From an uncultured Clostridium sp. (lineage in GTDB: Bacteria > Bacillota > Clostridia > TANB77 > CAG-508), in the NCBI GenBank assembly GCA_930982035.1, contig CAKNJL010000003.1, positions 858 through 64,857 on the forward strand: a DNA stretch of 64,000 nt. The letters run 5' to 3'. Both the position numbers and the translations under genes were made by a program. The stretch's first letter is position 1; every line of letters begins with the position of its first letter. Shown here one piece after another: positions 3,461 to 20,152 of the stretch. The notes under the pieces were generated by a model. The model did not search any database. It was given only the letters and a program-made list of their open reading frames with translations, and was not told where the DNA came from.

Positions 3461-4020
3461 TATTGCTCCCTCCTCTTCTACACTAAACTCTTCTTCCTTC
3501 TTGGTTTGTTACTTAGCTGTATTTTTATTGAAATTACAATAAAAAGCATTTCTCCATCTCCTTTCTTTTGTAATCCCAGAAGATGTGTTTTTTAGTACTT
3601 TGCTTTTTTTGTGATTATATGCTATAATTAGGTTGGTTTAAATACTGCAAAGTATTTTTTCTAGTTTTAAATAAGTGTCCGGCTTATTTAAAACTTTTAT
3701 TAATATTTTCTTCTGGTTGTACTCAAAGTCTAACAGAATTTTTGATGTTTGTCAAGTAAAAAAAACATTTAATTTTAAGAAATGTAATTTCTTTTGAAAA
3801 TAAAATATTTTATTTTCACTTTACACTGCAAAACTAAAGACTTTCATAGAGTTTCCTATAATAAGAAAGGCGTGCGTTAACGAAATCAAAGATTTCGACG
3901 CACACATGTGAAGACTGCTTCGCAGTACTTCACGAATATCAGAAGCCTAACCTTGTTGTATACGGAAAAATCCACATCGGGTCAAGATAAAATCCGATTT
4001 TTCCTATACAATAAAAAAAT

Positions 4021-4054
4021 ACTGAGTACCAAAGTTTAAACTTTATCACTCAGC
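4021..4054 (-). terminator. rho-independent terminator of GNAT gene (overlaps stop)
   Basis: minus strand ctgagtgataaagtttaaactttggtactcag followed by tattttttt. Confidence 0.5.
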
Positions 4055-4573
4055 TTTTATATCATAGATATATCCTACTTCTTTATATTTTTTTCCTTCT
4101 ACTTCGAAATATTTTTCATCTTCTAATAACTTCCCACCTATTTTTTCATAAAATTTTCTTGCATTTTCATTTTTTTCTAAACACCTTATTACCATTTTAG
4201 TTTTACTTTTATTTCTCAAGTCATTTATTGCATATTCTACCAATTTTTTTCCTATTCCATTACCCAATTTTTCATAATCAACATATAATGCTATAATCTC
4301 CGAATCTATATCTGTATCTTTATAAGTCACATTATCATCATATCTACAGTATCCTAGCACTATTCCCTCTTTTTCTGCTACTATTACATTACCAATATTA
4401 TAGCGTTTTTTCCATCTTTCTATTTTTTTATCTCTATCAATATTATTTAAAATTTCATCATCTATTATTCCTTTATATATCTTTTTCCAATCTTTAATGT
4501 TTATATCAACAATTTTTTCTATGTCCATATATTTTACTTTTCTAATTATCACATCATCTATAATCATTTTCAT
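4046..4573 (-). CDS. GNAT family N-acetyltransferase
   Basis: 175 aa, acetyl-CoA binding-like motif VGYCRY...GNGIGKKLVEYAI. Confidence 0.65.
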   Translation of the reverse strand: MKMIIDDVIIRKVKYMDIEKIVDINIKDWKKIYKGIIDDEILNNIDRDKKIERWKKRYNIGNVIVAEKEGIVLGYCRYDDNVTYKDTDIDSEIIALYVDYEKLGNGIGKKLVEYAINDLRNKSKTKMVIRCLEKNENARKFYEKIGGKLLEDEKYFEVEGKKYKEVGYIYDIKAE

Positions 4574-4690: not shown

Positions 4691-5239
4691 CTATATACTT
4701 TGAAAATAACTAATTATACCATTATATATTCCCCATGCTAATTGATTTTGATATTCATCTTGTTGAAGTTCTTTTTCTTCCTGCTGATTAGAAAGAAATC
4801 CACATTCTACAATTGATATTGGTATTTCTACATGTTTCATAATATATATTGTATTTAATTTCATAGCAATTCTATTATTTTCTTTTTGAATCGTTTCATT
4901 TAAGTTTCCTTGTATTTGTTCTGCAAGTTCTTTACTTTTTTCATTTTTTGTATTGTAAAATGTTTGCCAACCATAATATTGTTGTTGACTAATTTTATTT
5001 AAATGTATTGAAACAAATATGTCTGCTGATGATTCATTTCCTATTTTTACTCTATTATGAATATCTGAAACCTTTTTTTGTCTTAATGTTTTTGAGTCTA
5101 AATCATATATAGCATTTTCATCTGACCTTGTTAAAATTACTGTACATCCTGATTGCTCTAAGAGTTGTTGTAGTTTCAATGCTATTTTTAAATTAATTTG
5201 TGCTTCTGTTGTTCCATTACTACTTTCTGCTCCGTTCAT
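4691..5239 (-). CDS. Amidase_3 N-acetylmuramoyl-L-alanine amidase (CwlD-like), 3' portion of a gene interrupted by an integrated element; 5' portion at 21561..21764
   Basis: ADIFVSIHLN and surrounding Amidase_3 motifs; ORF lacks signal peptide and the IDAGHGG start of the domain; upstream in-frame stop 8 codons before Met. Confidence 0.8.
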   Translation of the reverse strand: MNGAESSNGTTEAQINLKIALKLQQLLEQSGCTVILTRSDENAIYDLDSKTLRQKKVSDIHNRVKIGNESSADIFVSIHLNKISQQQYYGWQTFYNTKNEKSKELAEQIQGNLNETIQKENNRIAMKLNTIYIMKHVEIPISIVECGFLSNQQEEKELQQDEYQNQLAWGIYNGIISYFQSI

Positions 5240-5307
5240 CTGATGGGTACTTTTTACTGCATTTTAATATTTAATTAAAAATCTAATTTTATTTAGATTA
5301 CTTTACA

Positions 5308-6825
5308 TTAAAAATTAAATTCTATCTCAACTTTCTTATCTTCATATACTTCAATTCTATTTATTACTTGTTTTAATATTTCATTTGTGAATTCTTTACC
5401 TTGTTTAAAATCCATAATAATTTTCTTTAAGTTTTCTTCTGATATTTTGCTTTTATTCTTTTCTTGTAATTGTTCTAAAGATTTTTTAGTTTCTTTTAAT
5501 TTACTTTTAAATTCATCATACTGCAATTTAAAGTCTTTTATTGATATTTTTCCATCTACTCTTTTACTATATAGTTTTTTCATTTCATTATCTATTTTCG
5601 TTTCATTGTTTTTGAGTAATTTCATTTGCTTATAAGTTATATCATTTTTTCTATATTCATCAGTAATTTTATTTGTGGCTATATTAATATTTATTGTATT
5701 CAATTTTTGTTTTACAGCATTTAATACTATTTCATTTAATGTACTCTCCATAATCGTATGTCCTTTGTCACATATACTAGGAAATTTATAAATCATTCTA
5801 CATTTAAAATACCAACATTTTTGAGGATTATCTAACACCTTATTTCTTATTTTAGTTCTTGTTCTATATTTATATTGCATTCTTGCCCTGCAATGTCCAC
5901 AATATACCAATTCTTTTAATAAATACTCATATTTGTTTTTAGGTTTATAAAACTTCTCTTTCAGCATTTTTTGTACTTTGTCAAATTGTTCTTGTGAAAT
6001 TATCGCTTCATGTGTATTCTCTTTAAAAATCCATTCTTCTTTGGGTGTTTTATATTTTTTCTTTGTTCTGTAATCTGTATATATTTTATTTATTATCATC
6101 TTACCTGTATAAAATGGATCTTTTAGAATTCTACTTATACTATCACTTCGCCATTCATTAATTGCTACCTTTTGCCCTTTATATTTTTTTGGTGTATCAA
6201 TTTTCATTTTAGTTAAATATTTTGCAATTTCTCCTTGTGAATGTCCTTGTAAATACATTTCATATATCAATTTCACATTATCAGCCACTTTTTCATCTAT
6301 AACCACTTTGTACTTATTTTCATCATCTTTCTTATATCCATAAGGTACATTTTTTTCAACATATTTTCCTTGTTTTTTCATATCAGTTTTTACAGATTTT
6401 ATCTTCTTAGAAATATCTGCAATATAACTTTGATTCATTATCCCTCTTAGCATTATAGTATCATCAATTTCATATCTTTCGCCACTATCTATAAATTCTG
6501 TTACAGAAATTAGTCTAACATCATTATCTGGGAAAAAAACTTCAGTATAATAACCTGTTTTATTTTTATCTCTAGTTAATCTCGATAAATCTTTAATAAT
6601 AACCATGTCTATTTTTTTTCTTAAAATATCTACTATCATTTTATTTAAAGCTGGTCTTGAGTCTAAAATACCTGAATATCCATTATCTACATATTCATTA
6701 ATTACATTAATATTATGTTTTTTAGCATAGTTTAAAGTAATATCTCTTTGTGCCTCTATACTATTATTCGTATTTGTATCTTCTTTTGATAGTCTTAAAT
6801 AAATTCCTGCTTTATATTCTTTCAT
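5308..6825 (-). CDS. large serine recombinase (resolvase catalytic domain + recombinase domain + zinc ribbon + coiled coil)
   Basis: N-term GIYLRLSKEDTN...DLSRLTRD catalytic domain, C-terminal CGHC.. zinc ribbon, 505 aa; 63 bp from element left junction. Confidence 0.85.
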   Translation of the reverse strand: MKEYKAGIYLRLSKEDTNTNNSIEAQRDITLNYAKKHNINVINEYVDNGYSGILDSRPALNKMIVDILRKKIDMVIIKDLSRLTRDKNKTGYYTEVFFPDNDVRLISVTEFIDSGERYEIDDTIMLRGIMNQSYIADISKKIKSVKTDMKKQGKYVEKNVPYGYKKDDENKYKVVIDEKVADNVKLIYEMYLQGHSQGEIAKYLTKMKIDTPKKYKGQKVAINEWRSDSISRILKDPFYTGKMIINKIYTDYRTKKKYKTPKEEWIFKENTHEAIISQEQFDKVQKMLKEKFYKPKNKYEYLLKELVYCGHCRARMQYKYRTRTKIRNKVLDNPQKCWYFKCRMIYKFPSICDKGHTIMESTLNEIVLNAVKQKLNTININIATNKITDEYRKNDITYKQMKLLKNNETKIDNEMKKLYSKRVDGKISIKDFKLQYDEFKSKLKETKKSLEQLQEKNKSKISEENLKKIIMDFKQGKEFTNEILKQVINRIEVYEDKKVEIEFNF

Positions 6826-6843
6826 AGTTATTCCATTCTAAAA

Positions 6844-8409
6844 CTATAATTTATCAAAAACATTATATTTGTAATTAATATAAATTTTATTTTCCTTGTC
6901 AATTTCTATATTGTAAATAATCTCAGATAATTTATCTCTATCCCAGTTTTCAATATTAGATAATTCATTCATAATAGATATTAATCTTTCTTTTGTTATT
7001 ATTGGTCTTTTTTCCTTTTCTTTTAAAATAGAATTAAGATTATTCTTTATGTTTGTTCTTCGTTCTATTTCTGTTTTATAGAATCTTTTATAATCATCAA
7101 TTTCTATAATATCATTTTTATAATCTTCATATAGTGAAGTTATTGTCTTATCAGTTTTCTCAAGTTGCTTTTCAAGAATTTTTATATTATCATCATATAC
7201 CTTTGTACTATTTTCTTTATACTGATTTAAAATTAAGTTTTCTAATTTATCGCTTTTACTTATATTGCTTAGCTTTTCTTTTACATTTCCTATAACTATT
7301 TTTTCAACTATTGTTTCATCAATTGCTTTGTACTTTCTGTTACAATCAGTAGTATTATTCTTTCTTACAGCAGTTCCACAATATATTTTTTTGGACTTAA
7401 TATTTCCATTTTTATTTCGATTTACTTTAATTACCATTTTTGTTCCACATTCTTTGCAAAATACAATTCCATTTAATTTCCATTCATATTTTCTATGCCT
7501 TGTTTTTTTATGAACACTTAATTTAGTTTGGACTCTTTCAAATTGTTCTTTTGAAATAATTGGCTGATGTGTATTTTCTACAATTTGCCATTCTTCTCTT
7601 GGTATAATTTTTACTTTTTTCGATTTATAACTTAGATTAATCTTTTTGCCATACTCTGTATGCCCAATATAGACTTTGTTTTTTAGAATCCTACTAATAG
7701 CCTCATCTCTCCAATTATAATCTCCGTTTTTAGCCCCTCCAAAATCGTAATAATCTGGACAATATATTTGTTGTTCTTTTAAATACTTGGCAATATCAGT
7801 AATCTTTTTTCCTTCATCATACATATTAAAAATCTTTTTTATAACTCTCGCTTGCTCTTTATCTATCTCTAATTTATTTTTATTATCTTTGCTTTTTTTA
7901 TATCCATAAGGAGCTTTTGCTGCTAAATACATTCCTTTTTCTTTTCTAGCCCATACACCGCTTCTTACTTTCCTTGAAATATCTTTACTATACCAGTCAT
8001 TAATTAGAGTTTTAAATTGTATCATATCATTATTTGAGTTTTTTAAATATGTATCTACATTATCTAAAATAGAAATGTACCTAATATTTTTTTCTAAAAA
8101 ATATATTTCTATGTAATAGTTAGCTTCAAAACTATTTCTTGAAAGCCTTGATAAGTCTTTAGTTATAACAGTATTAACGACACCATTTTCAATATCTGTA
8201 ATCATTTTTTTAAATGAAGGTCTATCTGTATTTAAACCAGTATATCCATCATCTATGTATAAATCATATAATTCAAATTCTTTTCCCAACTCTTTTATTT
8301 TATTTTCTATAATGCTTTTTTGACTAACAATACTATCACTTTCTTCCTTATCACCATCTTCCTTTGATAATCTTAAATAACCTGCCACTTTATATTTTGT
8401 ATTTTCCAT
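6844..8409 (-). CDS. large serine recombinase, second tandem copy (CcrA/CcrB-like pair arrangement)
   Basis: AGYLRLSKEDGD...DLSRLSRN, Cys-rich ribbon CKECGTK...C, 521 aa. Confidence 0.85.
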   Translation of the reverse strand: MENTKYKVAGYLRLSKEDGDKEESDSIVSQKSIIENKIKELGKEFELYDLYIDDGYTGLNTDRPSFKKMITDIENGVVNTVITKDLSRLSRNSFEANYYIEIYFLEKNIRYISILDNVDTYLKNSNNDMIQFKTLINDWYSKDISRKVRSGVWARKEKGMYLAAKAPYGYKKSKDNKNKLEIDKEQARVIKKIFNMYDEGKKITDIAKYLKEQQIYCPDYYDFGGAKNGDYNWRDEAISRILKNKVYIGHTEYGKKINLSYKSKKVKIIPREEWQIVENTHQPIISKEQFERVQTKLSVHKKTRHRKYEWKLNGIVFCKECGTKMVIKVNRNKNGNIKSKKIYCGTAVRKNNTTDCNRKYKAIDETIVEKIVIGNVKEKLSNISKSDKLENLILNQYKENSTKVYDDNIKILEKQLEKTDKTITSLYEDYKNDIIEIDDYKRFYKTEIERRTNIKNNLNSILKEKEKRPIITKERLISIMNELSNIENWDRDKLSEIIYNIEIDKENKIYINYKYNVFDKL

Positions 8410-9051
8410 AATAGTTACTCTCCTTCTTTCTCGATAGTAACTATTCCTTTATGTAACAAGGATTATACAAAATATTTTTGATAATATCCAGCATTTTTTT
8501 AATAATTACTATCTTTTAATTAGTGCTATTCAGTTTTTGAAGAGCATACCTACTCAGTATGTTATATATTTTTTCTATGTCATTATCTTTTTTAGTTCTT
8601 GCTATTACAGTATATTCTTGATTATCTATGGTATATGTAGTTTTTTCTTCTATGTAATCATTCACTCTAACACCAACTCCTTTATACACCATATTATCAA
8701 TCTATAAATTTTATTACTTTTGTTTATTAGTTATAATTGAATTTTCATTCACATAGGAGATTTGCCCTCCTCTCCTTTTCTAAGAAGCTATCCCTTTACA
8801 TTATGTTAGCCAGATAGAAGTTTCATTATATGTCTTATAACTAATTATGATACAAAATATTTGCTGTGTTTTTTTGACAATTATATTTTGTATATTTTTC
8901 AATGTGCTATTTTTGACTTTTATAGTATTTTGTAATACAATATTGTCAAACAACTTGTAATACGATTATAATTGTTTGATATTGGAAATAACACTATACA
9001 ACAGAAAAAAATTTTTTATTGATTTATGGTTGTTTGATAGGAGTGTAATTT

Positions 9052-9258
9052 ATGGATTTTTATATTGCTTTTGATAAAAATAGTAATACCGAATTTCTAT
9101 TATATAGGGATATGATTCATAAAGATAAAACTGATAAAACAGATGAACTTTATTATTCTGAACCTGTGTTCAAATGTAAAGTTATGCCAATTGGAACTTT
9201 CCTTTTAAATTTTTTAAATACAGATTTTAAAAGTAGAGATATTCGGAACTTTTATTAG
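9052..9258 (+). CDS. hypothetical small protein, possibly 5' part of a frameshifted gene continuing at 9377
   Basis: 68-aa ORF, different frame from downstream ORF, 118-nt gap. Confidence 0.25.
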   Translation: MDFYIAFDKNSNTEFLLYRDMIHKDKTDKTDELYYSEPVFKCKVMPIGTFLLNFLNTDFKSRDIRNFY

Positions 9259-9376
9259 CAAATATTGCTATTCATCTTTATATTATCCAAAATATCCCGA
9301 AAAGATAAAATCTGGAATTAATTTTATTGGTCTTGAATTAAATAAAAAAGATTATCTTTTAGGATTATTCGAACTT

Positions 9377-10171
9377 ATGCGTTCTGAAGAAGAACATTTT
9401 ATTAATGTCCAACATACATTTTTTAAACATTTGAATTTACCTTATGATAAGTCAATTGTAGATGATATTGAAGAAGATTATGATGATATACCTGCTACTC
9501 CTGAAGAAATAGAATTTGATAAAAAGTGGGATGAATATTTTGAGCAAAAAAGTAATCTAGCCCAAAAAAGACTTGATTTATTTAAGAAAAAATATCCCAA
9601 ATTATATGATGAGTATGAAAAACAACATTATAATCGTTTACAAAACTATAATGCAGAAAATGATATTATTGAAATCTCTGGATTAATAAATAGTTTAGCA
9701 TTAGACTTTACTTTTGGTGCATATTATTTATGTGGATATAATTTACCTTTGTATAATATACCTTATTGTTTTTGTAGTTCTGATGTTATAAGTATTTTAG
9801 CAATTGAATTTAAAGAGTTTATATCAGATAAACGCCATGTAATTAAGCAATGTAAAAATTGTGGAAGGTATTTTATTCCAGAAAATTTAAGGGATATTAA
9901 ATATTGTAATAATATTTTTAAAAATAACAAGACTTGTAAAGAATTAGGAAAACAACTAAGTTATAAAAAATCATTAAAAAACGATAAGTTACTTGATATG
10001 TATAGAAAAAGGTATCTTTCTTTGGCTAGTTCTGTTTCTCATTATGGTACTGAAAAAGCAATTGAAAGGTTTGAAAATTATAAAAAAGATGGAGCTATTA
10101 TGAAGAAGAAATATTTAGATAAGGAAATTAGTGCGAAAGAGTTTGAAAAGTGGATAAAAAATGCAAAATAA
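9377..10171 (+). CDS. hypothetical protein with CxxC...C zinc-ribbon-like motif
   Basis: 264 aa, CKNCGRYF...C motif; only plus-strand gene in this part of element. Confidence 0.4.
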   Translation: MRSEEEHFINVQHTFFKHLNLPYDKSIVDDIEEDYDDIPATPEEIEFDKKWDEYFEQKSNLAQKRLDLFKKKYPKLYDEYEKQHYNRLQNYNAENDIIEISGLINSLALDFTFGAYYLCGYNLPLYNIPYCFCSSDVISILAIEFKEFISDKRHVIKQCKNCGRYFIPENLRDIKYCNNIFKNNKTCKELGKQLSYKKSLKNDKLLDMYRKRYLSLASSVSHYGTEKAIERFENYKKDGAIMKKKYLDKEISAKEFEKWIKNAK

Positions 10172-10446
10172 TAATGTATAACATGATTTATGTAAAAATT
10201 ATAAGAATAAATATAAGAATATTAAATTTTACAATATAAGATAAAAGAAAGAGTAGTATATATTGTTAAATCAAACATTATATACTACTCCTTTTAACTT
10301 AGTCTTTCGGGTCTCTAACAACAGTTCTAAATGTAATGTTTGGGCTATCTTTTTCTGGATCTGCCCATGTTCTAAAAATAGGTGTATGTTTTTCTTTTTT
10401 CTTTATTAGTATTATTGTAATACTGTTGATTGTTTTGCTAATATAA

Positions 10447-11145
10447 TTATGATATGCATTTTTCTTCTCCAAAAATTCTACTTGCTTCAACTTGATTATA
10501 TAATGCCTTTTCTTTATCATAATAAAAAGCCCATTCTTTATCTCCGTATGAAAAATGCCACCATTCTCCATCATAAGGAGCAAATCCTTCTTTCATCATT
10601 ATTCTTCTTAATATTTTTCTATTGTTCTTTGCTTCTTCTGATATATCGTCAGCTTCATAATAGCATTGTGTAGTGCTATAATCTAATATTTCTGAACCAA
10701 AATCTAATATTCTATTTTCTTTACTATCATATATTGCTGCATCAACTGCTCCACCAGTTGGATGTCCTGAAACAAGTGGTACTGCAATTTTTTCATGTAT
10801 ATATTCATACATTTCCATTTCGTCTTGAAAATTTTCCTTTACCTCTTCTAGTATTTCATTAAAGTATCTTTCTTGTTTTTTCATATCTCTAAATCCATAT
10901 ACTACTATTACTTTATAATTTGCATTTATTTCTTTTAAATCTTTTGCAACATTTATAAGTTTTTCATATACTGTTTTTCTTACAGCAATTTGATGTCCAT
11001 ATTCTAACATATTTCTTCTTTCTTGATATCTTCCAATTACCAAATCATCTTCTAATGGAAGTAATACAAATTCTTCCTTATCTGTTTTTTCATCATATTC
11101 CTCTATTGTTATTAAATCTTCATATCTTACAAAATTATTTGCCAT
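10447..11145 (-). CDS. D-Ala-D-Ala dipeptidase (VanX/DdpX family, peptidase M15D)
   Basis: SGHPTGGAVDAAIYD and EWWHFSY motifs (Zn ligands/catalytic Glu of VanX family), 232 aa. Confidence 0.75.
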   Translation of the reverse strand: MANNFVRYEDLITIEEYDEKTDKEEFVLLPLEDDLVIGRYQERRNMLEYGHQIAVRKTVYEKLINVAKDLKEINANYKVIVVYGFRDMKKQERYFNEILEEVKENFQDEMEMYEYIHEKIAVPLVSGHPTGGAVDAAIYDSKENRILDFGSEILDYSTTQCYYEADDISEEAKNNRKILRRIMMKEGFAPYDGEWWHFSYGDKEWAFYYDKEKALYNQVEASRIFGEEKCIS

Positions 11146-11166
11146 TTGTTTATTGCACTTTCCTTC

Positions 11167-13323
11167 CTAATCTTTATTTTTTGCTTTTTGCACTACCGTT
11201 ATAGTTTCTTCTAATGTAATGGTATTTTGTTCTCCTGAACTCATATCTTTTAATGTTATTACATTATTTTTTATTTCATCTTCTCCTATAATTATTACAT
11301 ATCTTGCATTAATATTATTTGCATATTTAAATTTTTTTCCTAATTTTTGTTGTTCTATATTAATTTGTACATTTATATCTTCTTCTCTTAACTTTGAAGC
11401 TATTTTTGCACACATTTCACAATCTTCTGTCATTGAAATTATTAATACATCTGTAATTGATTCCTCATTTGCTGAAATTATTTCATTATCTACTAATTGA
11501 AAAAATAATCTTGATAGTCCTATTGAAATTCCTACTCCTGGCATCTTTCTTTCTGTATAATATTCTGTTAAATTATCATATCTTCCTCCTGAACATATAC
11601 TTCCTAAATTTTTATATTGATTTAGAAATGTTTCATAAACTGTTCCTGTATAATAATCTAATCCCCTAGCTATAGTTAAATCAATTTTATAATTTTCTTC
11701 TGGAACTCCAAAAATTTTGATAAATTTTGAAACTTCTTTGATTTCATTTATCCCCTCTTTAAAAATTGCATTATCAATATTCATACTTTCTAAAGCTTGA
11801 ATTTTTTCTTCATTTTTTCCTTTTATTTCTAAAAATTGCATTATTACATCAACTTTCTTCTCTGGTATAGATATTAATAATTCTCTTCTTACTTCTTCTT
11901 TTCCTATTTTCTCTATTTTATCAATTATTCTTAATATCTCAGGCGATATATCTTCAAGTTCTAAACTTGAAAACAATCCATTTAATATTTTTCTGTTATT
12001 AATACAAATCGTAAAATCATCAAATCCAAGTTTTTTAAAAGTATTATATATAATAGATGGAATTTCTGCATCATTTATTATAGATAATTCTCCATCACCA
12101 ATAATATCAACATCACATTGATAAAACTCTCTATATCTTCCTCTTTGTGGTTTTTCCCCTCGATATACTTTTCCTATTTGATATCTTTTAAAAGGAAAAC
12201 TTAATTTATCATAGTACTCCGTTACATATTTAGCTAAAGGAACTGTCAAATCAAATCTAAGAGCTAAGTCATTTTCACCTTTTTTCAATTTATATATTTG
12301 TTTTTCTGTTTCTCCACCTGCTTTTGCAAGTAAAACATTAGCATCTTCTATTATTGGCGTGTCTAATGGCAAAAATCCATATTTTTCATAAGATTTTTTT
12401 ATTATTTCTTTCATTTTATTAAATAAAATTTGTTCTTTTGGTAATAATTCCATAAAGCCTGGTAAAGTTTTTGGTTGTACCTTTCCTTTCATTATAATTC
12501 CTCCTTCAATTTGGTATGTCTTTCCGTCAGTTTCAACATTGCCTAAGATAGTAGCTTTTTTTAAACTGCCTTCATCATAGATTATATCTGCTGTAATAAT
12601 CAGTCCTGAAGGTTGTAAAATATCAATTTTTACACTTTGCTTTTTTAAATAAGCCTCTACCATACATGTAGCGGTGGTACCAGATCCACAAGCAGTTTCA
12701 TAAAATAGTGTATTTATTTCTTTAACCCAAACAATTGGATTTATTTTTATTACACCTTCTACATTTTCACAGAACATAACCCCTACTGCTTCACTATATT
12801 CAAGATGATATTTATGAATAAAATTCATTCCCATTGCTTTTAAATTATCTTTATTTACAAGATATTTTTTAGCAATTTCATCCTGAATTACTACAGTTAC
12901 CATACCATTCATTTTTACAATAAAAATTCCTAGTTCTTTTTCAGTGATTACATCATCACCATGATAAAGTGGAATTTCGCACCATGCTTTTCCTTCTTTA
13001 TCAACTCCAGCATTGATTAAGTCCTTAGAATTTACAAACATTTGTAAATCTCCCGGCTTTCCATTTAAGAAAATGGATGCTGCGCTTCTTGTTGCATTAC
13101 CACAAAACTCTCCTCCTGCCATTTGTAATTCCGGTTTAGGATTTAATTCGATAAATCCTACCTGTTCGACATTAGGATGTTTTGCCATAATCAAATCGTT
13201 GATTTTCTTTCTCTGTTTTTGCGTATATCCTAATCCATAGACAAAAGCTGTATCATTACCAGCAGGTCTATAAATTGAATATTTCACATTAGTTACAGAC
13301 ACTTTGCAAAGTTTCTCGCTCAT
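11167..13323 (-). CDS. fusion protein: N-terminal diaminopimelate-epimerase-fold domain (DapF-like, histidine-racemase-like) + complete class II histidyl-tRNA synthetase-like region with anticodon-binding domain
   Basis: N-term PAGNDTAFV (GNDF motif), first Cys FCGNATR, second Cys TACGSGTTA = DapF two-base fold; then HisRS motif 2 RGRYREFYQCDVDIIG, GGRYD, ARGLDYYTGTVYE, C-terminal HGTP_anticodon-like LGKKFKYANNINARYVIIIGEDE; no T-box leader upstream. Confidence 0.6.
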   Translation of the reverse strand: MSEKLCKVSVTNVKYSIYRPAGNDTAFVYGLGYTQKQRKKINDLIMAKHPNVEQVGFIELNPKPELQMAGGEFCGNATRSAASIFLNGKPGDLQMFVNSKDLINAGVDKEGKAWCEIPLYHGDDVITEKELGIFIVKMNGMVTVVIQDEIAKKYLVNKDNLKAMGMNFIHKYHLEYSEAVGVMFCENVEGVIKINPIVWVKEINTLFYETACGSGTTATCMVEAYLKKQSVKIDILQPSGLIITADIIYDEGSLKKATILGNVETDGKTYQIEGGIIMKGKVQPKTLPGFMELLPKEQILFNKMKEIIKKSYEKYGFLPLDTPIIEDANVLLAKAGGETEKQIYKLKKGENDLALRFDLTVPLAKYVTEYYDKLSFPFKRYQIGKVYRGEKPQRGRYREFYQCDVDIIGDGELSIINDAEIPSIIYNTFKKLGFDDFTICINNRKILNGLFSSLELEDISPEILRIIDKIEKIGKEEVRRELLISIPEKKVDVIMQFLEIKGKNEEKIQALESMNIDNAIFKEGINEIKEVSKFIKIFGVPEENYKIDLTIARGLDYYTGTVYETFLNQYKNLGSICSGGRYDNLTEYYTERKMPGVGISIGLSRLFFQLVDNEIISANEESITDVLIISMTEDCEMCAKIASKLREEDINVQINIEQQKLGKKFKYANNINARYVIIIGEDEIKNNVITLKDMSSGEQNTITLEETITVVQKAKNKD

Positions 13324-13587
13324 AATGTTCTCCTTTAATCAAAAAAGCTATATAGTTAAACAATATCTTTTATATAAATATTATTTACCTATATAGCTTT
13401 ATATTTTATTTTTATATAGGCACATCAAAATTGACTTGTGCCCATTACTAATTAGACACAAGTTTAAAAATGATGATGCACTTTGTTTATATTCTTACTT
13501 TTAAACTTCATTTTTATTCCTCTTTTTTCTAATTTTTTTATAATAATACACTATTTTTCAATATATGTCAAGTATAAATCAACATAA

Positions 13588-14902
13588 TGTTAAAGTTTTT
13601 TAGAAATGTCCTAATATAGTTTTCAGAAATGTCCTGTTTTTTATTAAATATTTTTAATGTATAATTCATCTCAGATTGGAGGTGATTTTTTTATGAAGAA
13701 CAAAAAATATGCATTACAATTGCTAAAAGATAAGATTAATGGAGAAAGGCTAATCTCTTTTGTTTCTATTTCCGAATTATCTGGATATTCTGAAAGACAA
13801 ATTAGACGTTGGTCAAAAGACATTGAAAATAGGGATATTGATTCTCTCCTTATTCACGCTAGTAAGGGCAAAACTCCCAATAATGCCGCTAGCAATACCG
13901 AACTAGAATATCTTAAGGATTTTAAGAAACAATATCCTAATATCAGTATATCACAATTTATGGACATCTACCACGAAGATATAATTTTCAATCCTGATAA
14001 ATCGGATGATGTTTATGAATTTAAGCTCAGAAAACGTAGTTACTCATTCTTTAAAGATTTTTATCGTAATAATGGTTATAAATCTCCCAGAAAACATAGA
14101 TGTTTTAAAGGTAAAGACTCCCATCCTTTGCGTGAACCATCTCCTAGAAGAGGTATTTTAATTATGATTGACGGTACTCCACATGATTGGTTTGAAAATG
14201 GTAAAAAATTTTCTTTGCATTTAGCTGTTGATGATGCTACAGGAGAAATTTTAGCTGGATGGTTTATGCCTACTGAATGTCTAGAAGGCTATTGTTATAT
14301 GCTTATAATTTTAATTCAAAAACATGGTATACCTGAAAATATATATTCTGATAAGCATACAATATTTAAAAGCCCTGTAGATGGAAATTTGACTCAATTT
14401 GGGCGTATGTCAGTAACATTTTTTGCATTAAAGAAAAAAGGAAAATACTAGATGGTTGTGTGTTTTCATATTCTAATAATTATTACCAATTGCTTGATGA
14501 GAATGGTGTAATAGTTAAAATTTTCAAAGGTACTGATATAACTGTAATGGAAGATATATTTGACCATACAATTAGAGCTGAATATCGAAAAAAAGTTTAT
14601 TCTACTAGGCAAATTGCTGGACATAGACAAGACCCTGTAAAAAGACAACAAAAAATTCAAAATCAAAAGGAACTTGATGAATACTTGCGATCACAAAACC
14701 AAAATAACTAGGTTATATGTTGTCAATGAAAGAAACGTATAAAATGACATACTTCTTGGCTTAGCTCCTTTATGCCGTTTCTGTAATTGTACAACATGAT
14801 GTAAATTTATAATTTTGTATAGGTGGTTAATCACATACTTTGTGATAACCACCTTAGTTACTTTATAAATTTCAAACCGGACATTTCTAAAAGACTTTAA
14901 CA
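13588..14902 (+). mobile_element. IS element, IS1202/ISNCY-like, 1315 bp, with 24-bp terminal inverted repeats and 16-17 bp target-site duplication
   Basis: IRL tgttaaagttttttagaaatgtcc (13588-13611) vs IRR ggacatttctaaaagactttaaca (14879-14902); direct repeats (a)gtataaatcaacataa at 13571-13587 and 14903-14919. Confidence 0.6.
13657..14711 (+). pseudogene. IS transposase (DDE, IS1202-group-like), interrupted by stop/frame change at 14451-14460
   Basis: N-terminal HTH (SGYSERQIRRWS), DDE-like region ILIMIDGTPHDWFE...LHLAVDDATGEIL; second ORF 14460..14711 continues the protein. Confidence 0.5.
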
Positions 14903-14923
14903 GTATAAATCAACATAAGTTTT

Positions 14924-15244
14924 CTAGTTTGGCAATATTAACTTTATTGAAGTTGTTGTAAAAATACTAACTATTTTTGAATTTACTACTTTATCCAAAT
15001 TTGGAATTCTATAAGCAATAAAACCAAATAGCGGTATTGCAAGTGAATTTGCTACAGCCCAAATAATAAATGGAATCCAACCTTTTGTTTGTACAGTTTC
15101 CATTCCTACCACTAATGATGTTCCCCATGCCCATGTTGCCGCTAAAGACATTGCATAAAATAATGTAGTGTTTCTTTTTAATAATCCTTTCATAATTTTT
15201 TTAATTCTACAATACTGTGAATTAATATTCCCCCCCTTAATCAC
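14924..15244 (-). pseudogene. N-terminal fragment of a polytopic membrane transporter, truncated next to the IS
   Basis: 106 aa with 2-3 TM helices only, ends 5 bp beyond IS target duplication; 8-nt overlap with upstream S66 peptidase gene suggests former operon. Confidence 0.4.
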
Positions 15245-16232
15245 TAAATTTTATCTCTATATTTTTATCTTTTGCTACTATATTAGCATTTCCTCCTATT
15301 GGAAATGTAAATATTGGAGTTGTATGTCCTATATCTGCATTAATTATTATAGGTATATTTTGTAACTCTGATTTACTTTCGATTATTTTATTCCATTTAT
15401 CATAGTTCATCTCTGAAACATTCTCTGCTCTTCCTATTACTAATCCTTTTATTTTTTTTCCTTTTGCACAATGTAACAATGATTGTAAATTTCTATCAAA
15501 TTCTTTAATAAATGCTTTTCCTGTTTCTCCATCATCTTCAATAAATAGAATTGAATTATCTAAATCAGGCATATATTCTGTTCCTTGTAATAGATTTAAT
15601 GTGCATAAATTACCACCTATTATTTTTCCCTCTGCTTCTCCTTCATTTATTATTTTCATTCCTTCATTATTAATAAAATTCCTATCTTCTTGATTTTTTA
15701 GCCATTTATCATTACTCCATTGTTTCGAAGTTAATACTTCTATTTTCTTATTTTCAAAAAACATTTTTTTAAAATATTCCATTGAATAGTCAAACCCATA
15801 TTTCATGCCAAAACTAAAAAATTGTACTCCAAGATATGTAATTACCTTTGTTTTAGCATATATAGCATTTACTAATGCTGTAATATCAGAAAAACCACAT
15901 ATTATTTTAGGATTTTCTTGTATTAACTTATAATCTATATAGTCTAGTATTTGATTTACATTATATCCACCTATTACTGTCATAACTGCTTTAACGTTCT
16001 TGTCTTTAAAAGCTTCATGTAAATCTTCTATTCTCTCCTCTATTGTTGCACATTTAAAGTATTCATCTTTATATTTCATCACATTCTTTCCAAATGTAAC
16101 TTTGAGACCTAATCTCTCTAATCTTTCAGTTGCTAATTTTATAACATCTTCTTTTAATACTCTCATACTTCTTGACGGAGCTATTATTCTTATTTCATCA
16201 CCCATTTTTAATTTTTCTGGAACAATTTTCAT
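15237..16232 (-). CDS. LD-carboxypeptidase, peptidase S66 family (LdcA/MccF-like)
   Basis: 331 aa; GFSDITAL (nucleophile Ser), C-terminal E...H triad region ADIGHTTP; family includes murein tetrapeptide LD-carboxypeptidase and microcin C7 immunity protein MccF. Confidence 0.7.
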   Translation of the reverse strand: MKIVPEKLKMGDEIRIIAPSRSMRVLKEDVIKLATERLERLGLKVTFGKNVMKYKDEYFKCATIEERIEDLHEAFKDKNVKAVMTVIGGYNVNQILDYIDYKLIQENPKIICGFSDITALVNAIYAKTKVITYLGVQFFSFGMKYGFDYSMEYFKKMFFENKKIEVLTSKQWSNDKWLKNQEDRNFINNEGMKIINEGEAEGKIIGGNLCTLNLLQGTEYMPDLDNSILFIEDDGETGKAFIKEFDRNLQSLLHCAKGKKIKGLVIGRAENVSEMNYDKWNKIIESKSELQNIPIIINADIGHTTPIFTFPIGGNANIVAKDKNIEIKFSD

Positions 16233-16318
16233 TATTTTCCCTCCTTTGTATAAATTTCGATGATATTATATCATAGGTTTTCTGATTTGTAAATGTTTTA
16301 TGTTAATTTTGACATAGG

Positions 16319-16558
16319 TTATTCTTTTTTATCCATAATTTCTTTTAATTCTTCTAAATGTTCTCCCAGTACATCTCTAAATTCTAATTCTATTGTATCA
16401 TTAGTTTTATTGTAGCAGATTTGCAATAAATCTAAATCTAGTAATGACTTATTATAAAAGCTAAATGTAATTTTATTATCATTTATTAATCTATTTAATA
16501 AATCTCTAAAAATCTTCATATCTATTTCTTCTTCATTTTTCCTTTTCATTAATCTCAC
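16319..16558 (-). CDS. hypothetical small protein
   Basis: 79-aa ORF, divergent from XRE gene. Confidence 0.3.
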   Translation of the reverse strand: MRLMKRKNEEEIDMKIFRDLLNRLINDNKITFSFYNKSLLDLDLLQICYNKTNDTIELEFRDVLGEHLEELKEIMDKKE

Positions 16559-16641
16559 CTTATATAATTTTTGTTTTACCCCTTGCTTGATGTCATAATA
16601 TCACAAACTTAAGGATAAAATCAATATAAATTATAAAAAAG

Positions 16642-16914
16642 GTGGAATATATTATGGCTGTTAGAAAATTAAATAATAATCTAAATGTTATTGGAGATAA
16701 TCTAAGAAAATACAGAAAAGAAAAACATCTATCTCAGGCAGATTTAACTATGGAACTAAATCTACTTGGAATCAATCTTCATAAAAATGATATTTATATG
16801 GTTGAAAACAATAAAAGAACAGTTAAAGACTATGAAATATGGGGTTTTATAAAAGTTTTAAATATAACTTTTGATGATTTATTTGCTGGGATAGAAAATA
16901 AGTTAGAAAATTAG
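16642..16914 (+). CDS. XRE-family HTH transcriptional regulator
   Basis: LRKYRKEKHLSQADLTMEL HTH. Confidence 0.65.
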   Translation: MEYIMAVRKLNNNLNVIGDNLRKYRKEKHLSQADLTMELNLLGINLHKNDIYMVENNKRTVKDYEIWGFIKVLNITFDDLFAGIENKLEN

Positions 16915-16957
16915 CTTTTTACTCAAAAAGTATTATTATAATACTTTTTGAGTATTC

Positions 16958-18229
16958 TTATATTTCCTCTTCTTCTTCAAACCAATTAAAACTACTAGAA
17001 TTCTTATTTTTCAAATACCATTCTTTTATAGCTTGTTTTGATAAACTCTTTTTCCAACCTTTTATTTTTCTTGGGTGCTTTATATTATTAGGTCTAGTCA
17101 TATTTGCTAATATATCAATTGCTATTAATGTAATAGAGTTATTATCCAACCTGCTATAATCCCTATAATTATCGCTATAAAAATTGTCTTTATTTTGAAA
17201 GCCATATTTTTTTCCTTGTATTTCTCTTCTTGATGTATAAATTCGTTCATCTTGTCCGTAACAATTGTTTCCACATTCTCTATCAATTTTTCTTGTAAAT
17301 CGTTCATAATGTTCTGTATTTCTTGCTTGTCCTTTTTCAAAGTTGTCCTTATTTCGTTTATATCTTCTGTCGCTTGTTTGTTCCAAATTATCATTTCTGT
17401 TATTATATCTGGATCTAGTAACATATATTTCATTATTATTGGTGTTTGTGTCATTTGTTGTTCTTCCGGTATATGTATTTGATTTTTCTTCTTTAATTCT
17501 TCCATTGATGGCATTTTCCATCTCCTCCTTTAAATATTTTTTATCATTTAATTTATTATCTCTACATTTCATTCCCTCAGGTGTTGTATAAGTTATATAT
17601 TTTCTTTTTTTAGTCCATAAAACTTGATATCCTAATTTATTCATATTCTTAAAAAATTCGGTTTTATTTTTACTTTTTTCTAATGAATAATCAATGGCAT
17701 TTGCTAATTTCATTTTCCAACTTTGCCCTTTTAATGCTACTTGATATTCATTTTTATTATATATTCCTTGATATTTTTTCTTTTCTATTATTTCTAGTCC
17801 CTCTTCTTTACAGAATTTATCGGAATAATCTTTTACTTTTTGCATATCATTTTTTGATTGATTAAATTTCTTTCCATTTTCAAAATTAACAGAATTTACA
17901 ATCAAATGATTATGTATATGCTTTCTATCAGTATGTGTAGCAACTAATACTTGAAAACCTTGAAAATAGTTTGCAAGTTTTATTCCTATTTCATGTGCTT
18001 TTTGAAAATCTAAATCATCTTTTGGACTAAATGATTGAACAATATGTATATATTGCCTTCCTCCATTTTTATTATAAAATTCTTTAACTGTTTTCATTTC
18101 TTCCAAACAACTATTGGCAACACAATCTTTTCCTGTTATTAAATTCGCATTTGTTTTATCTGTCCTTGTAACATAATCTATTATCGTTTTTAACTCTGCT
18201 TTTGAATTAGTAAATTTAATAATTGCCAA
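16958..18229 (-). CDS. relaxase/mobilisation nuclease (MobA/MobL family)
   Basis: HIHIVQSF...HTDRKHIHNHLIVNSVN three-His motif of MOB relaxases. Confidence 0.8.
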   Translation of the reverse strand: MAIIKFTNSKAELKTIIDYVTRTDKTNANLITGKDCVANSCLEEMKTVKEFYNKNGGRQYIHIVQSFSPKDDLDFQKAHEIGIKLANYFQGFQVLVATHTDRKHIHNHLIVNSVNFENGKKFNQSKNDMQKVKDYSDKFCKEEGLEIIEKKKYQGIYNKNEYQVALKGQSWKMKLANAIDYSLEKSKNKTEFFKNMNKLGYQVLWTKKRKYITYTTPEGMKCRDNKLNDKKYLKEEMENAINGRIKEEKSNTYTGRTTNDTNTNNNEIYVTRSRYNNRNDNLEQTSDRRYKRNKDNFEKGQARNTEHYERFTRKIDRECGNNCYGQDERIYTSRREIQGKKYGFQNKDNFYSDNYRDYSRLDNNSITLIAIDILANMTRPNNIKHPRKIKGWKKSLSKQAIKEWYLKNKNSSSFNWFEEEEEI

Positions 18230-18564
18230 ATAGACTTCATCTCCTTTTTTACATCTTCTAAATTTATATTTCTTAATCTTCCTTGATTACATAATTTAGT
18301 TAATTGATTTATGTTATTGCCTATTTTTCTTAATTGTATTATTATTTCTTCTAATCCATTTATAACTATAACATCTTTATCCATTGAAGTTCTTAATAAA
18401 TATTCGCTAGTATTTAATTTTGACTTTTCTATTTTACTTTTTATTTTGTTATACTCTTTTTCATTTACTCTAAAATTAAAATGTCTATTTTTATTTTGTT
18501 TTTTCTCTACCATAATTAACCTATCCTTTCCTTTTATGGGGTTTGGGTTCTCCCAATTCTTCAT
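18190..18564 (-). CDS. MobC-like relaxosome accessory protein
   Basis: ribbon-helix-helix-like NFRVNEKEYNKIKSKIEKS..EYLL; overlaps relaxase start. Confidence 0.65.
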   Translation of the reverse strand: MKNWENPNPIKGKDRLIMVEKKQNKNRHFNFRVNEKEYNKIKSKIEKSKLNTSEYLLRTSMDKDVIVINGLEEIIIQLRKIGNNINQLTKLCNQGRLRNINLEDVKKEMKSIWQLLNLLIQKQS

Positions 18565-18738
18565 CGCTAATCTCTATTTTCAAGTCCATTTGTATTACAA
18601 ATGGGAAGCTTGCCTAAAATAAAGTTAAACAGAACAAAAGCGACATGATTAAAATATCCTATCATTTTAGATTACTTATATGTCGCGTCTTTGTTCGTGT
18701 ACCAAATTTCTGTAAGAAATTTGTGTACAATTTTATAT

Positions 18739-18772
18739 GTGCTATTAGGTAATATAATTTCCTAATAGCACA
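18739..18772. promoter_or_regulatory. candidate oriT hairpin upstream of mobC
   Basis: inverted repeat tgtgctattagg...cctaatagcaca 190 bp upstream of mobC; a second IR gcgacat...atgtcgc at ~18643-18690. Confidence 0.35.
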
Positions 18773-18786
18773 TATACTTGTTGCAA

Positions 18787-19272
18787 TTACAAGTTTGTAT
18801 TTAGATTTGCATATAGTCCATTTAAAAATTCTTCTGGATATTCTCTGCCTATATACTTTTTATTTTTTATATTTCTTTTTATATCTTTATCATTTGTATT
18901 AATAGGTATTTTACAATTTTGATAATTCGTTTTATCATTTTTGTTAATAGTGTATCCACAATTTTGATAATACCTGTTCATAACTTCTTTTAAAGGTATT
19001 ATTTGTCTATTTTCTATTTCTTTTGAGTTCGATTTATAATTCATATTTATTTTTATATAGTTCTTTTTCTTTAAAGAATTTATTATTCTTGATATACTTA
19101 CAACTGTTACATTTAAAATATCAGAAAAATAATTATTGGTTGCAAAACAGTATCCTTTATCTTTACTTAAATATATAATCATAGATAATATTATTTTTTC
19201 CTTATCTGATAATTTGTTGTTTATCAATATTTCTGATGGCATCCATAATCCTTTTAAATCTGATTTGTTCAT
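18787..19272 (-). CDS. winged-helix/HTH protein, replication-initiator-like (as found on conjugative/mobilisable elements)
   Basis: 161 aa, N-terminal HTH LSDKEKIILSMIIYLSKDKGYCFATNNYFSDILNVTVVSISRIINSLKK. Confidence 0.4.
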   Translation of the reverse strand: MNKSDLKGLWMPSEILINNKLSDKEKIILSMIIYLSKDKGYCFATNNYFSDILNVTVVSISRIINSLKKKNYIKINMNYKSNSKEIENRQIIPLKEVMNRYYQNCGYTINKNDKTNYQNCKIPINTNDKDIKRNIKNKKYIGREYPEEFLNGLYANLNTNL

Positions 19273-19444
19273 CTTATTTCACATCATCTCCTATCAAAAA
19301 AAGACCAAGTATTTATGTACTCAGTCTTTAATAAAATCTATTTTATATAATTTATTTATCATAATTTTGTTTTTACTTTTATTTGTATTTCAGTTTTATT
19401 TTGATTATCATAATCTTATTTTTTGATCCTATATTTTTCATATA

Positions 19445-20152
19445 TCAGCATTCATTAATAAACTTTTCAAACAACCTAACTACATATTTTTCATTAAATA
19501 ATAACTCTGGATGCCATTTTATTCCCATAACAAATTTTTTATTTAGTAATTCAAAACTTTCAACAAGACCATCTTCAGAATATGATGAGATTTTTGCATA
19601 AGGTTCCACTAATTCTTTTGTTGCTATCATTGAATGAATACTATTAACATCTATTTCTTCTTTTTCTATTATTTTATATAGTTTAGTGCACTTTTCTATT
19701 TTAATTTTATGCCTATAATTCTTATCATATACATCATGACTTTTGCTCTTATCTAAAACTACATCACTACCTAAAGCTCTTAATATATTATTAAATCCAG
19801 CACATATTCCAATTAATGGTTTATCTAATTCTATAACCTTTTTTGTAATTTCAATTTCGTATTTACAACTATATAATCCTCCTTGTAAAATAAAACCATC
19901 ACATAATTCAATTTGCTTATATAATCCTTCTATTTCTTCGCTATTTAATTCCTTCTCATCTTTAATATCATTATCATTAAATTTCATTGTTGCTTCTGTT
20001 GGTAGCAATGTTATAGCAATCCCACCATTTTTTACTATTAGATATCTTATTTCATCTACTTCATCAATTCTATGCCATAAATCTTCATCATATTTTGGTT
20101 GTACTTTTCCTATTATTCCAATTATTGGTTTGTTTTTCATTATAAATTTCAC
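19445..20152 (-). CDS. class I glutamine amidotransferase-like / peptidase C26 (gamma-glutamyl hydrolase family)
   Basis: GICAGFN nucleophile Cys, WHPE His motif. Confidence 0.7.
   Translation of the reverse strand: MKFIMKNKPIIGIIGKVQPKYDEDLWHRIDEVDEIRYLIVKNGGIAITLLPTEATMKFNDNDIKDEKELNSEEIEGLYKQIELCDGFILQGGLYSCKYEIEITKKVIELDKPLIGICAGFNNILRALGSDVVLDKSKSHDVYDKNYRHKIKIEKCTKLYKIIEKEEIDVNSIHSMIATKELVEPYAKISSYSEDGLVESFELLNKKFVMGIKWHPELLFNEKYVVRLFEKFINEC

Follow-up and report, generated by a model that had tools for sequence, protein, structure and literature searches.

Probable remnants of two histidine-centred cargo cassettes on a mobilizable element of an uncultured Clostridium

Positions 10447 to 16232 of a 64,000-nucleotide stretch of DNA from an uncultured Clostridium sp. 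(the whole stretch is called the window below) hold an odd assortment of genes in low-GC DNA (~25% G+C): a zinc peptidase of family M15, an open reading frame (ORF) in which a racemase-like domain runs into a complete histidyl-tRNA synthetase (HisRS), an insertion sequence (IS), the stub of a transporter gene and a serine peptidase of family S66. All are cargo of a mobilizable element, and the question raised by the locus is whether they serve one function. An earlier reading, made from the letters without database searches (the sequence-only reading), took them tentatively together as an immunity or uptake module for a microcin-C-like or D-amino-acid-containing compound, or as a set for remodelling cell-wall stem peptides. 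The answer given here, to which a probability of roughly 0.55 is assigned, is that the genes are remnants of two histidine-centred cassettes on a ~16-kb element: the M15 peptidase, racemase and HisRS (cassette B) handle D- and L-histidine when histidyl-tRNA is short, and the S66 peptidase is the orphan of a separate cassette (cassette A).

The M15 peptidase (232 aa; 10447–11145, minus strand) lies 22 nt downstream of hisS and matches Pfam Peptidase_M15 (E = 1.9e-18, 67.4 bits against a cutoff of 27). Its motifs, SGHPTGGAVD from residue 126 and EWWH from residue 194, are the SxHxxGxAxD and EWWH that had been noticed by eye, and the zinc-binding and catalytic set R86, H128, D135, E194 and H197 was invariant among 26 homologues. 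With an AlphaFold2 (AF2) model (predicted local distance difference test, pLDDT, 90.2) the top match in the PDB was VanX (1r44, E = 3e-10), followed by VanXYc, LdcB and VanY. VanX, VanY and LdcB are M15 enzymes that cut before a C-terminal D-residue. The protein had been called a VanX-family D,D-dipeptidase; the family and the VanX fold stand, but the score falls below the NCBIfam equivalog cutoffs for both VanX (NF033115, 56.7 against 320 bits) and DdpX (NF007557, 46.3 against 176 bits). Neither vanH-vanA nor ddp transport genes were found beside it in the window or in 80 related loci. The peptidase thus shares with VanX and DdpX (MEROPS M15D) a fold common also to VanY and LdcB, the SxHxxGxAxD and ExxH motifs and the conserved arginine. 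It differs in being ~24% identical to VanX over 156 aligned columns, in having its own N-terminal extension of ~100 residues and in adjoining a histidine-racemase gene; certain genomes encode it as a fusion with the racemase or with HisG.

The neighbourhood of this peptidase was surveyed by a genome scan with an alignment of homologues, which gave 247 relatives; the best 80 loci were kept and partners were located in them by tblastn with the cluster proteins. (L-numbers below denote related loci from other genomes or metagenome contigs.) A racemase gene was present within 2.5 kb of the M15 gene and on the same strand in 63 of the 80 loci, and anywhere in the M15 module in 72, the additional nine being close relatives in which the distance is ~3–5 kb. 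HisRS lay within 5 kb of M15 in 49 loci and HisG in 17. Where the M15 protein was no more than 50% identical (44 loci), the racemase was found in 42, HisRS in 31 and HisG in 10. As labelled, the loci belong to Clostridia, Oscillospiraceae, Lachnospiraceae, Erysipelotrichaceae, many Patescibacteria, Nocardia, Nitriliruptoraceae and Chlamydiae; others are in metagenome-assembled genomes (MAGs) labelled Gammaproteobacteria, with synteny like that of the Candidate Phyla Radiation (CPR). The linkage of the M15 peptidase with a histidine-racemase-like gene and with HisRS or HisG is firmly established across phyla.

Several of these partners are also joined as continuous ORFs: M15::HisG in six loci, racemase::M15 in two, racemase::GNAT in many and GNAT::racemase in Nocardia. 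In the M15::HisG cases the peptidase and a long-form HisG (HisG plus HisG_C) occupy a single ORF (L062 9944–11731 and L065 9370–11136; also L061, L063, L066 and L079), an unexpected partnership between a peptidase and the enzyme that opens histidine biosynthesis. The GNAT partner resembles N-alpha-acetyltransferases. Natural versions without it occur in L046 (racemase, HisRS-type gene, M15) and in L048 and L050 (racemase, M15), each with an HHH leader of the kind described below. The context of the M15 relatives without a racemase (L055–L058) was uninformative. The peptidase apparently belongs to an undescribed enzyme set of many bacterial phyla, and a literature search found no description of a racemase-M15-HisRS module or of the S66/ligase cassette A.

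The second gene of the set is the 718-aa ORF (11167–13323, minus strand). Its residues 1–277 (12493–13323) form a histidine-racemase-like domain of the CntK_N/HisR type, and residues 278–718 (11167–12492) a complete HisRS whose own AAGGAGG ribosome-binding site and ATG are kept inside the fusion. The N-terminal domain was matched by the NCBIfam models for CntK (E = 3.7e-21, 75.8 bits against a cutoff of 300) and HisR (E = 6.7e-20, 71.9 against 400), and its closest solved match is the histidine racemase HisR (9cr6, E = 8e-15). Its catalytic residues Cys74 (EFCGN) and Cys212 (TACGSG) align with C67 and C209 of HisR, in keeping with the D-amino-acid theme of the sequence-only reading. HisR and CntK both racemise histidine (PMC11602996). 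In the 2024 paper on HisR the purpose of that enzyme was called unclear and different neighbours were reported (PMC11602996). With HisR from Fusobacterium nucleatum and CntK from Staphylococcus aureus the domain shares the DapF-like architecture and both catalytic cysteines, but its context is unlike that of the cnt staphylopine genes and unlike the Fusobacterium neighbourhood of PMC11602996: in the present loci it mostly occurs as a GNAT fusion, with M15 and HisRS as partners.

The HisRS half scores 410.5 bits against TIGR00442 hisS (cutoff 286.75) and contains both PF13393 and PF03129. Over its 441 residues it shows 100% identity to a HisRS that 'Clostridium sp. CAG:440' has as a stand-alone gene product. 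In relatives the stand-alone gene comes after hisIE, on contigs that have the same recombinase, DUF6076 and M15 end and a much larger cargo. The element HisRS is also ~78–80% identical to the chromosomal hisS of related MAGs, which stands in housekeeping contexts without M15. The idea of a divergent, resistance-type HisRS finds no support in this identity.

How the two halves came together is seen in these fuller relatives. There, cassette B has the order leader with terminator/antiterminator, hisZ, hisG, histidine-racemase::GNAT, hisIE, hisS, M15 and a gene resembling FGE-sulfatase. When the window was compared by blastn with L003–L012, collinear blocks separated by three gaps were obtained: window 13582–13328 corresponds to the region upstream of hisZ, 13336–12505 to the 5' part of the 454-aa racemase::GNAT gene (with which the DNA of the racemase domain is 97.8% identical) and 12506–10452 to hisS plus M15. 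Two deletion junctions in cassette B lie at AAGGAG(G) microhomology, in ribosome-binding-site motifs. The first deletion took out hisZ and hisG and placed the racemase start behind the leader. The second joined the racemase/GNAT linker to the ribosome-binding site of hisS and removed the GNAT domain together with hisIE and its stop codon; as a result, the racemase domain reads in frame into HisRS. The third removed most of the 225-aa FGE-like gene downstream of M15, of which a 3' remnant is left at 10299–10395 (minus strand; blastn breakpoint window 10395 = L004 12722). The tail of this remnant, ...FRTWADPEKDSPNITFRTVVRDPKD, matches L004 12144–12821; the gene is intact in relatives and has a weak Pfam FGE-sulfatase match (E = 0.017).

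Cassette B of the window is therefore reduced to the leader, racemase::HisRS and M15 (10299–13571). The single ORF and its racemase-like N-terminal domain are as the sequence-only reading had them in its 'epimerase-HisRS fusion', but the joint itself is the product of an in-frame deletion. A natural, functional racemase-HisRS fusion was accordingly rejected, as the junction lies at a microhomology deletion and no other racemase::HisRS ORF was found in the 80 related loci. Together with the losses from cassette A described below, this makes the window copy a deletion derivative of two cassettes.

What was spared by these deletions includes the control region. A promoter-like site on the minus strand at 13543–13571 (TTGACA, 17-nt spacer, TATTAT; 11 of 12 consensus positions) abuts the direct repeat of the IS, and fuller relatives have homologous sequence ahead of hisZ. 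This site and one upstream of the S66 gene (16265–16293, minus strand; TTTACA, 17-nt spacer, TG-TATAAT, again 11 of 12 positions, by consensus match only) are the two best promoter-like sites of 10200–16700. Downstream of the first is a short leader ORF (13464–13511, minus strand) of 15 codons, encoding MKFKSKNINKVHHHF, with three consecutive His codons; in diverged relatives its end is conserved as ...KVHHHF(YTCV). The segment that follows (13341–13463, minus strand) folds as a putative attenuator made up of a hairpin, a segment complementary to the His codons, an antiterminator arm and an intrinsic terminator, the last being a perfect hairpin followed by UUUUUU (13341–13400, minus strand). 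The His codons pair with the downstream UGAUGUGC, and the adjoining CCUAUAUA, the antiterminator arm, can pair with the 5' arm of the terminator hairpin. The fold is more stable than that of shuffled sequences (z = -5.98), and in an alignment of eight diverged leaders the structure is kept while eight pairs are changed on both sides.

Similar leaders occur in other loci. In 30 cases, some of them in CPR loci, an ORF ending in a run of at least three His codons lies no more than 450 nt upstream of a module gene; counted over the loci, 45 such His-run ORFs share the strand of the module and 14 have the other orientation. A hairpin with a U-run follows 13 of 16 further leaders, several of them from CPR loci. 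From the His-codon leader and the mutually exclusive antiterminator and terminator it is predicted that cassette B is transcribed when charged His-tRNA(His) is scarce, and induction by histidine starvation would follow. Searches of Rfam gave no T-box and no His_leader, and chance miRNA-like matches only, both over the whole window at the gathering threshold and over 13250–13700 at an E-value threshold. The arrangement resembles the leader of the enterobacterial his operon, in which a short ORF with a run of His codons likewise precedes alternative antiterminator and terminator hairpins. The E. coli leader has seven His codons, against three here, and the leader of the window fronts a racemase-HisRS-M15 set rather than a full biosynthetic operon, is unmatched by Rfam His_leader and has similar counterparts in Clostridia and CPR loci.

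Two further regulatory features were observed in relatives. A second, different His-codon leader (...HHH(H)IKPVSLQ, then stop) is located upstream of hisIE or hisS in L034 (6002–6127), L036 (8116–8193) and L040 (8420–8482), so that at least L034 and L036 carry two attenuators. In 15 loci (L064, L067, L068, L073, L074, L076, L080, L085, L090–L092, L095, L096, L098 and L104), mostly CPR/Patescibacteria with some MAGs labelled Gammaproteobacteria, a gene of ~100 codons of the Trp_repressor family (PF01371) is directly upstream of the racemase::GNAT-M15 pair. The Trp_repressor-family protein itself ends in HHH in three of the 15, and in some others a separate HHH mini-ORF follows the gene.

The S66 peptidase has a different history. 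The protein (331 aa; 15237–16232, minus strand) is intact, is the first gene of cassette A and contains both the N- and C-terminal S66 domains (PF02016, E = 7.8e-38; PF17676, E = 6.1e-28), in agreement with the family named in the sequence-only reading. The motifs GFSD, IEDD and GHT, starting at residues 113, 231 and 302, align with the Ser/Glu/His positions of MccF-type chains. Its best solved relatives are BA_5613 ('MccF-like', 364 bits) and Lmo1638 (355 bits), at ~58–62% identity; B. anthracis MccF (151 bits) and E. coli MccF (137 bits) come well behind, E. coli LdcA (5z01) scored 71 bits, and the LdcA equivalog NF008424 gave 124.9 bits against a cutoff of 378. Within family S66 the protein thus shares with MccF and LdcA the two-domain architecture and the positions of the catalytic motifs, but groups in a third clade, whose solved members BA_5613 and Lmo1638 come from structural genomics. 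A report on the function of that clade (Lmo1638, BA_5613, YkfA) was not found in the literature searched. In a long loop, similar in length to the MccF substrate loop, W172 (WSND) is aligned with the tryptophan of the WSDE segment of B. anthracis MccF, by sequence alignment only; in the substrate loop of E. coli MccF, W186 stacks on the adenine (PMC8323819). As the S66 protein is nearer MccF than LdcA and the M15 peptidase is below the VanX and DdpX cutoffs, the placement in LdcA and DdpX housekeeping clades, which together with a lack of co-occurrence of the three genes had been named as telling against the earlier idea, was not found.

The transporter gene next to it had been recognised as truncated, and this was borne out. 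The 106-aa ORF (14924–15244, minus strand) has ~96 native codons, the native sequence ending at 14953, and represents the 5' third of an intact gene of 339 codons, reconstructed from L022, where an uninterrupted ORF (3700–4488) follows the S66 gene and overlaps L003 1–309. The 8-nt overlap with the S66 gene requires the GTG at 15244 as start codon; there is an ATG 51 nt further downstream, and L107 does not conserve the overlap. The intact protein, which has ~146 homologues, gave no Pfam or NCBIfam match. Its AF2 model (pLDDT 89.5) matched CHT1 (SLC5), AdiC, ApcT and LAT1 in Foldseek, suggesting a LeuT-fold transporter of the APC superfamily. Distant homologues (49–62% identity) are present in a polysaccharide-type cluster with UDP-glucose dehydrogenases, PIG-L, radical SAM and AMP-binding genes (L108 6863–7846) and in a prophage (L109 10001–10978), and the family is therefore not restricted to cassette A.

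The intact cassette A was found by a scan of metagenome contigs for its PanC-like gene and one look-up with the transporter. In all 11 loci with enough flank (L107, L110, L112–L117, L119, L120 and L122) the order is S66, transporter, HisRS-like, PanC-like, PurD-like; across these loci the S66 protein is 56–91% identical to the window copy and the PanC-like protein shows 82–90% identity. Some copies of the cassette stand by themselves, some are accompanied by a second HisRS of the HisS2 type, and some adjoin cassette B, in several arrangements. The PanC-like adenylating ligase and the PurD-like ATP-grasp ligase score just below the panC and purD cutoffs and so look like repurposed paralogues. 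In some full-length cassettes (L004 3012–3893; L111, L112 and L113) a 293-aa radical-SAM/SPASM gene with an N-terminal CxxxCxxC separates the PurD-like gene from the second HisRS. Cassette A's own HisRS-like protein is without the RGLDYYTG histidine-binding motif and the motif-3 arginine, and activation of histidine by it is doubtful.

In the window only the S66 gene and the transporter stub remain of this cassette after deletion (14924–16293), and with its partners deleted the S66 peptidase is probably an orphan. The proposal of one joint module did not survive these comparisons: S66 and M15 are in different transcription units, each with its own strong promoter-like site and its own conserved partners, and an S66 gene was within 10 kb of M15 in none of the 80 M15 loci.

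Between the two remnants lies the IS that had been likened to IS1202. It is an ISNCY (IS1202-group) element (13588–14901, plus strand) with transposase ORFs at 13657–14451 (264 aa) and 14460–14711 (83 aa), a score of 132 bits (E = 2.5e-38) against NF033594, for which the cutoff is 250, and 28-nt terminal inverted repeats at 13584–13611 and 14879–14906; with its transposase in fragments, the copy is probably defective. An exact 17-nt direct repeat, TTATGTTGATTTATACT, flanks it at 13571–13587 and 14902–14918, immediately upstream of the -35 box of cassette B. As the repeats match on both sides, the IS looks like a simple insertion. The junction of the transporter truncation is 35 nt outside the direct repeat, and this, with the matching repeats, weakens the case for the IS as the cause of the truncation and suggests insertion close to a deletion joint that was already there. 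Both the IS and this joint are confined to the reduced allele, at 100% identity in 11 loci.

The division into two cassettes, the history of deletions, the gene fusions and the architecture of the leader are firmly shown; from these elements a tentative mechanism can be written for cassette B. A low level of charged His-tRNA(His) would let transcription from the sigma-70-type promoter read through the attenuator. The M15 peptidase would then cut the amide before a C-terminal D-residue, probably D-histidine (in an X-D-His dipeptide or N-acyl-D-His), the racemase would interconvert D- and L-histidine, and the extra HisRS would capture L-histidine. Together the three would amount to D-histidine salvage or detoxification under conditions in which histidine charging is limiting. 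This chemistry is proposed because the M15 family cuts before a C-terminal D-residue and because HisR and CntK act on histidine. For the S66 peptidase, a C-terminal amide of the ligase product or of the transporter cargo would be a likely substrate, one no longer made by the window copy. A partial precedent is the Geobacillus operon of N-succinylamino-acid racemase, GNAT and M20, which carries out an irreversible D-to-L conversion. Cassette B likewise has an acyltransferase, a racemase and a metallo-amidohydrolase in one operon, but its racemase is DapF-like, a type acting on free amino acids, and not of the enolase superfamily, and its hydrolase is M15 (typically acting at a C-terminal D-residue) and not M20, so the order of reactions cannot be carried over.

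Several observations weigh against this proposal. The activities of all these proteins are predictions from sequence; the racemase domain is far below the CntK and HisR cutoffs, and histidine is suggested as its substrate by context. The attenuator too is predicted, with no matching Rfam family. GNAT, a core partner in most lineages, is deleted here, and if it acetylates D-His it may oppose an N-acyl-D-His hydrolase. HisG, HisZ and HisIE are encoded with none of the remaining pathway, and simple salvage does not account for this; we know of no natural source of D-His-terminated peptides. The loss of the RGLDYYTG motif and motif-3 arginine from the HisRS-like protein makes the link of cassette A to histidine weak. 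The set of M15 loci is biased to relatives keeping two sequence motifs. Finally, the 100% identity of the reduced-allele copies across the IS and the truncation junction gives no basis for judging purifying selection on the retained genes.

That last point bears equally on the unlikely possibility that S66, racemase::HisRS and M15 are decaying debris, conferring nothing and persisting because the allele is young. At least four rearrangements within 6 kb, a truncated transporter, a broken transposase and the loss of GNAT would all be expected of debris, and the identity of the copies means that selection has had no time to leave a trace. Against this, the reduced allele is found in contigs of many samples, all three retained ORFs are intact, and both deletions within cassette B are precise, with promoter, leader, frame, HisRS ribosome-binding site and M15 all kept; what remains, a racemase-HisRS-M15 set, mirrors the natural GNAT-less versions of L046, L048 and L050. 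The stem-peptide remodelling of the sequence-only reading, in which S66 would be an LdcA- or YkfA-type LD-carboxypeptidase and M15 a VanX- or DdpX-type D-Ala-D-Ala dipeptidase, is highly improbable. It is the default activity suggested by the family names, the BA_5613/Lmo1638 clade could be a Firmicute LD-carboxypeptidase, and the element is inserted in a cwlD-like amidase gene. That gene, however, is the integration site only, both proteins fall well short of the LdcA, VanX and DdpX cutoffs given above, and no peptidoglycan genes are conserved beside either: the conserved partners are instead racemase, HisRS and HisG for M15 and the PanC-like and PurD-like proteins for S66.

An inhibitor of histidyl-tRNA charging offers another way to connect the two cassettes. 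By the logic of microcin C, the genes would give immunity, or production and immunity, against a histidine-derived inhibitor, with the window copy retaining immunity only: S66 would cleave an aminoacyl-nucleotide-like amide (as MccF does), GNAT would acetylate the alpha-amine (as MccE2 does), M15 would degrade the peptide carrier, the extra HisRS would titrate the inhibitor, and cassette A would provide for its synthesis through the ligases and its export through the transporter. The classic enzymes of microcin C immunity are of two kinds, S66 peptidases and GNATs (PMC8323819); the S66 protein here is nearer MccF than LdcA, and its W172 aligns with the Trp of the B. anthracis MccF loop. Fuller elements have up to three HisRS-type genes plus HisZ, cassette A supplies two ATP-dependent amide ligases and a transporter, the two cassettes adjoin each other in three different arrangements, what the reduced allele retains is precisely S66, HisRS and M15, and a His-codon attenuator would fire on inhibition of HisRS as well. 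The comparison with mcc clusters gave nothing to match: the S66 gene has a LeuT-fold transporter and PanC-like and PurD-like ligases for partners, and the gene lists of the window and of every relative contain no MccA-like peptide, MccB/ThiF adenylyltransferase or MccC exporter. Cassette A in L115–L119 has no HisRS in range, cassette B in tiny CPR genomes sits among housekeeping genes (DnaB, release factor, L31), the element HisRS has no sign of a resistant variant, and the fusion of racemase to GNAT points to free histidine as the substrate. A 2021 review of natural Trojan-horse inhibitors of aminoacyl-tRNA synthetases makes no mention of HisRS or histidyl (PMC8323819). Such a role is judged unlikely. 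Its fullest form is distinctly so: that full-length relatives encode both synthesis (PanC-like, PurD-like, radical-SAM, LeuT-fold exporter) and self-protection (S66, GNAT, M15, HisRS copies, attenuator-driven his genes) for such an inhibitor, the window copy being an immunity-only derivative spread among human-gut Clostridia.

Whichever role the cargo has, the sequence-only reading was right to place it within a mobile element. This is a mobilizable integrative element of ~16 kb (5237–21570, ends approximate) lying inside a cwlD-like Amidase_3 gene, of which the N-terminal piece (21486–21764) ends in ...GHGTPDEGG (~21570) and the C-terminal piece (4691–5239) begins with NGAESS (~5237). Two large serine recombinases (5308–6825 and 6844–8409), a relaxase (16958–18229) and MobC (18190–18564) were identified, and genes for a DUF6076 protein and a helix-turn-helix protein are also found around the cargo. 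The 718-aa protein and the S66 protein are both found, unchanged and in the same arrangement, on many human-gut metagenome contigs, and megablast of window 9300–19300 against PLSDB gave no plasmid match. Clostridial mobilizable transposons of the Tn4451/Tn4453 type likewise have large serine recombinase(s) and a Mob relaxase flanking the cargo; the present element differs in its two recombinase genes, in histidine-related rather than antibiotic-resistance cargo and in its cwlD-like amidase target. The splitting of an N-acetylmuramoyl-L-alanine amidase gene resembles the serine-recombinase 'intervening elements' of sporulation genes, and in L003–L007 the element is integrated in the same gene. 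A variant in L014 carries, at the position of the window's NUDIX gene, a duplicated nucleotidyltransferase/HEPN pair, and also a 546-aa ABC-F-type double ATPase (4935–6575), possibly a ribosomal-protection resistance protein.

Outside the element three further features of the window were noted. Just beyond it, at 22719–23463, is a nucleotidyltransferase (Polbeta/NTP_transf_2) and HEPN pair typical of toxin-antitoxin systems, identified through its identity to L013 2776–3514. A 1549-aa protein with FHA and FtsK/SpoIIIE domains (24096–28745), identified through identity to the L013 gene list, is EssC-like and suggests type VII secretion. Two adjacent, very large ORFs (33249–38312, 1687 aa, and 38517–42038, 1173 aa) are in higher-GC, strongly AT-skewed DNA, and matching antisense ORFs (119 and 127 aa) at the same relative offsets suggest that they encode internally similar, paralogous large proteins.

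If the preferred reading, two histidine-centred cassettes, is true, a compact histidine-limitation operon, recurring from gut Clostridia to CPR/Patescibacteria and Actinobacteria, has taken in a VanX-type peptidase alongside HisRS and a histidine racemase that is usually GNAT-fused. This would provide a physiological role for bacterial D-histidine beyond staphylopine synthesis, and would add an example of leader-peptide attenuation from lineages with few described ones. The locus also illustrates how an element sheds cargo through deletions between ribosome-binding sites, yielding a spurious-looking "Rosetta stone" fusion. Its interest lies less in the decayed copy in the window than in the conserved modules to which that copy points, among them cassette A, a conserved, mobile and uncharacterised five-gene unit.

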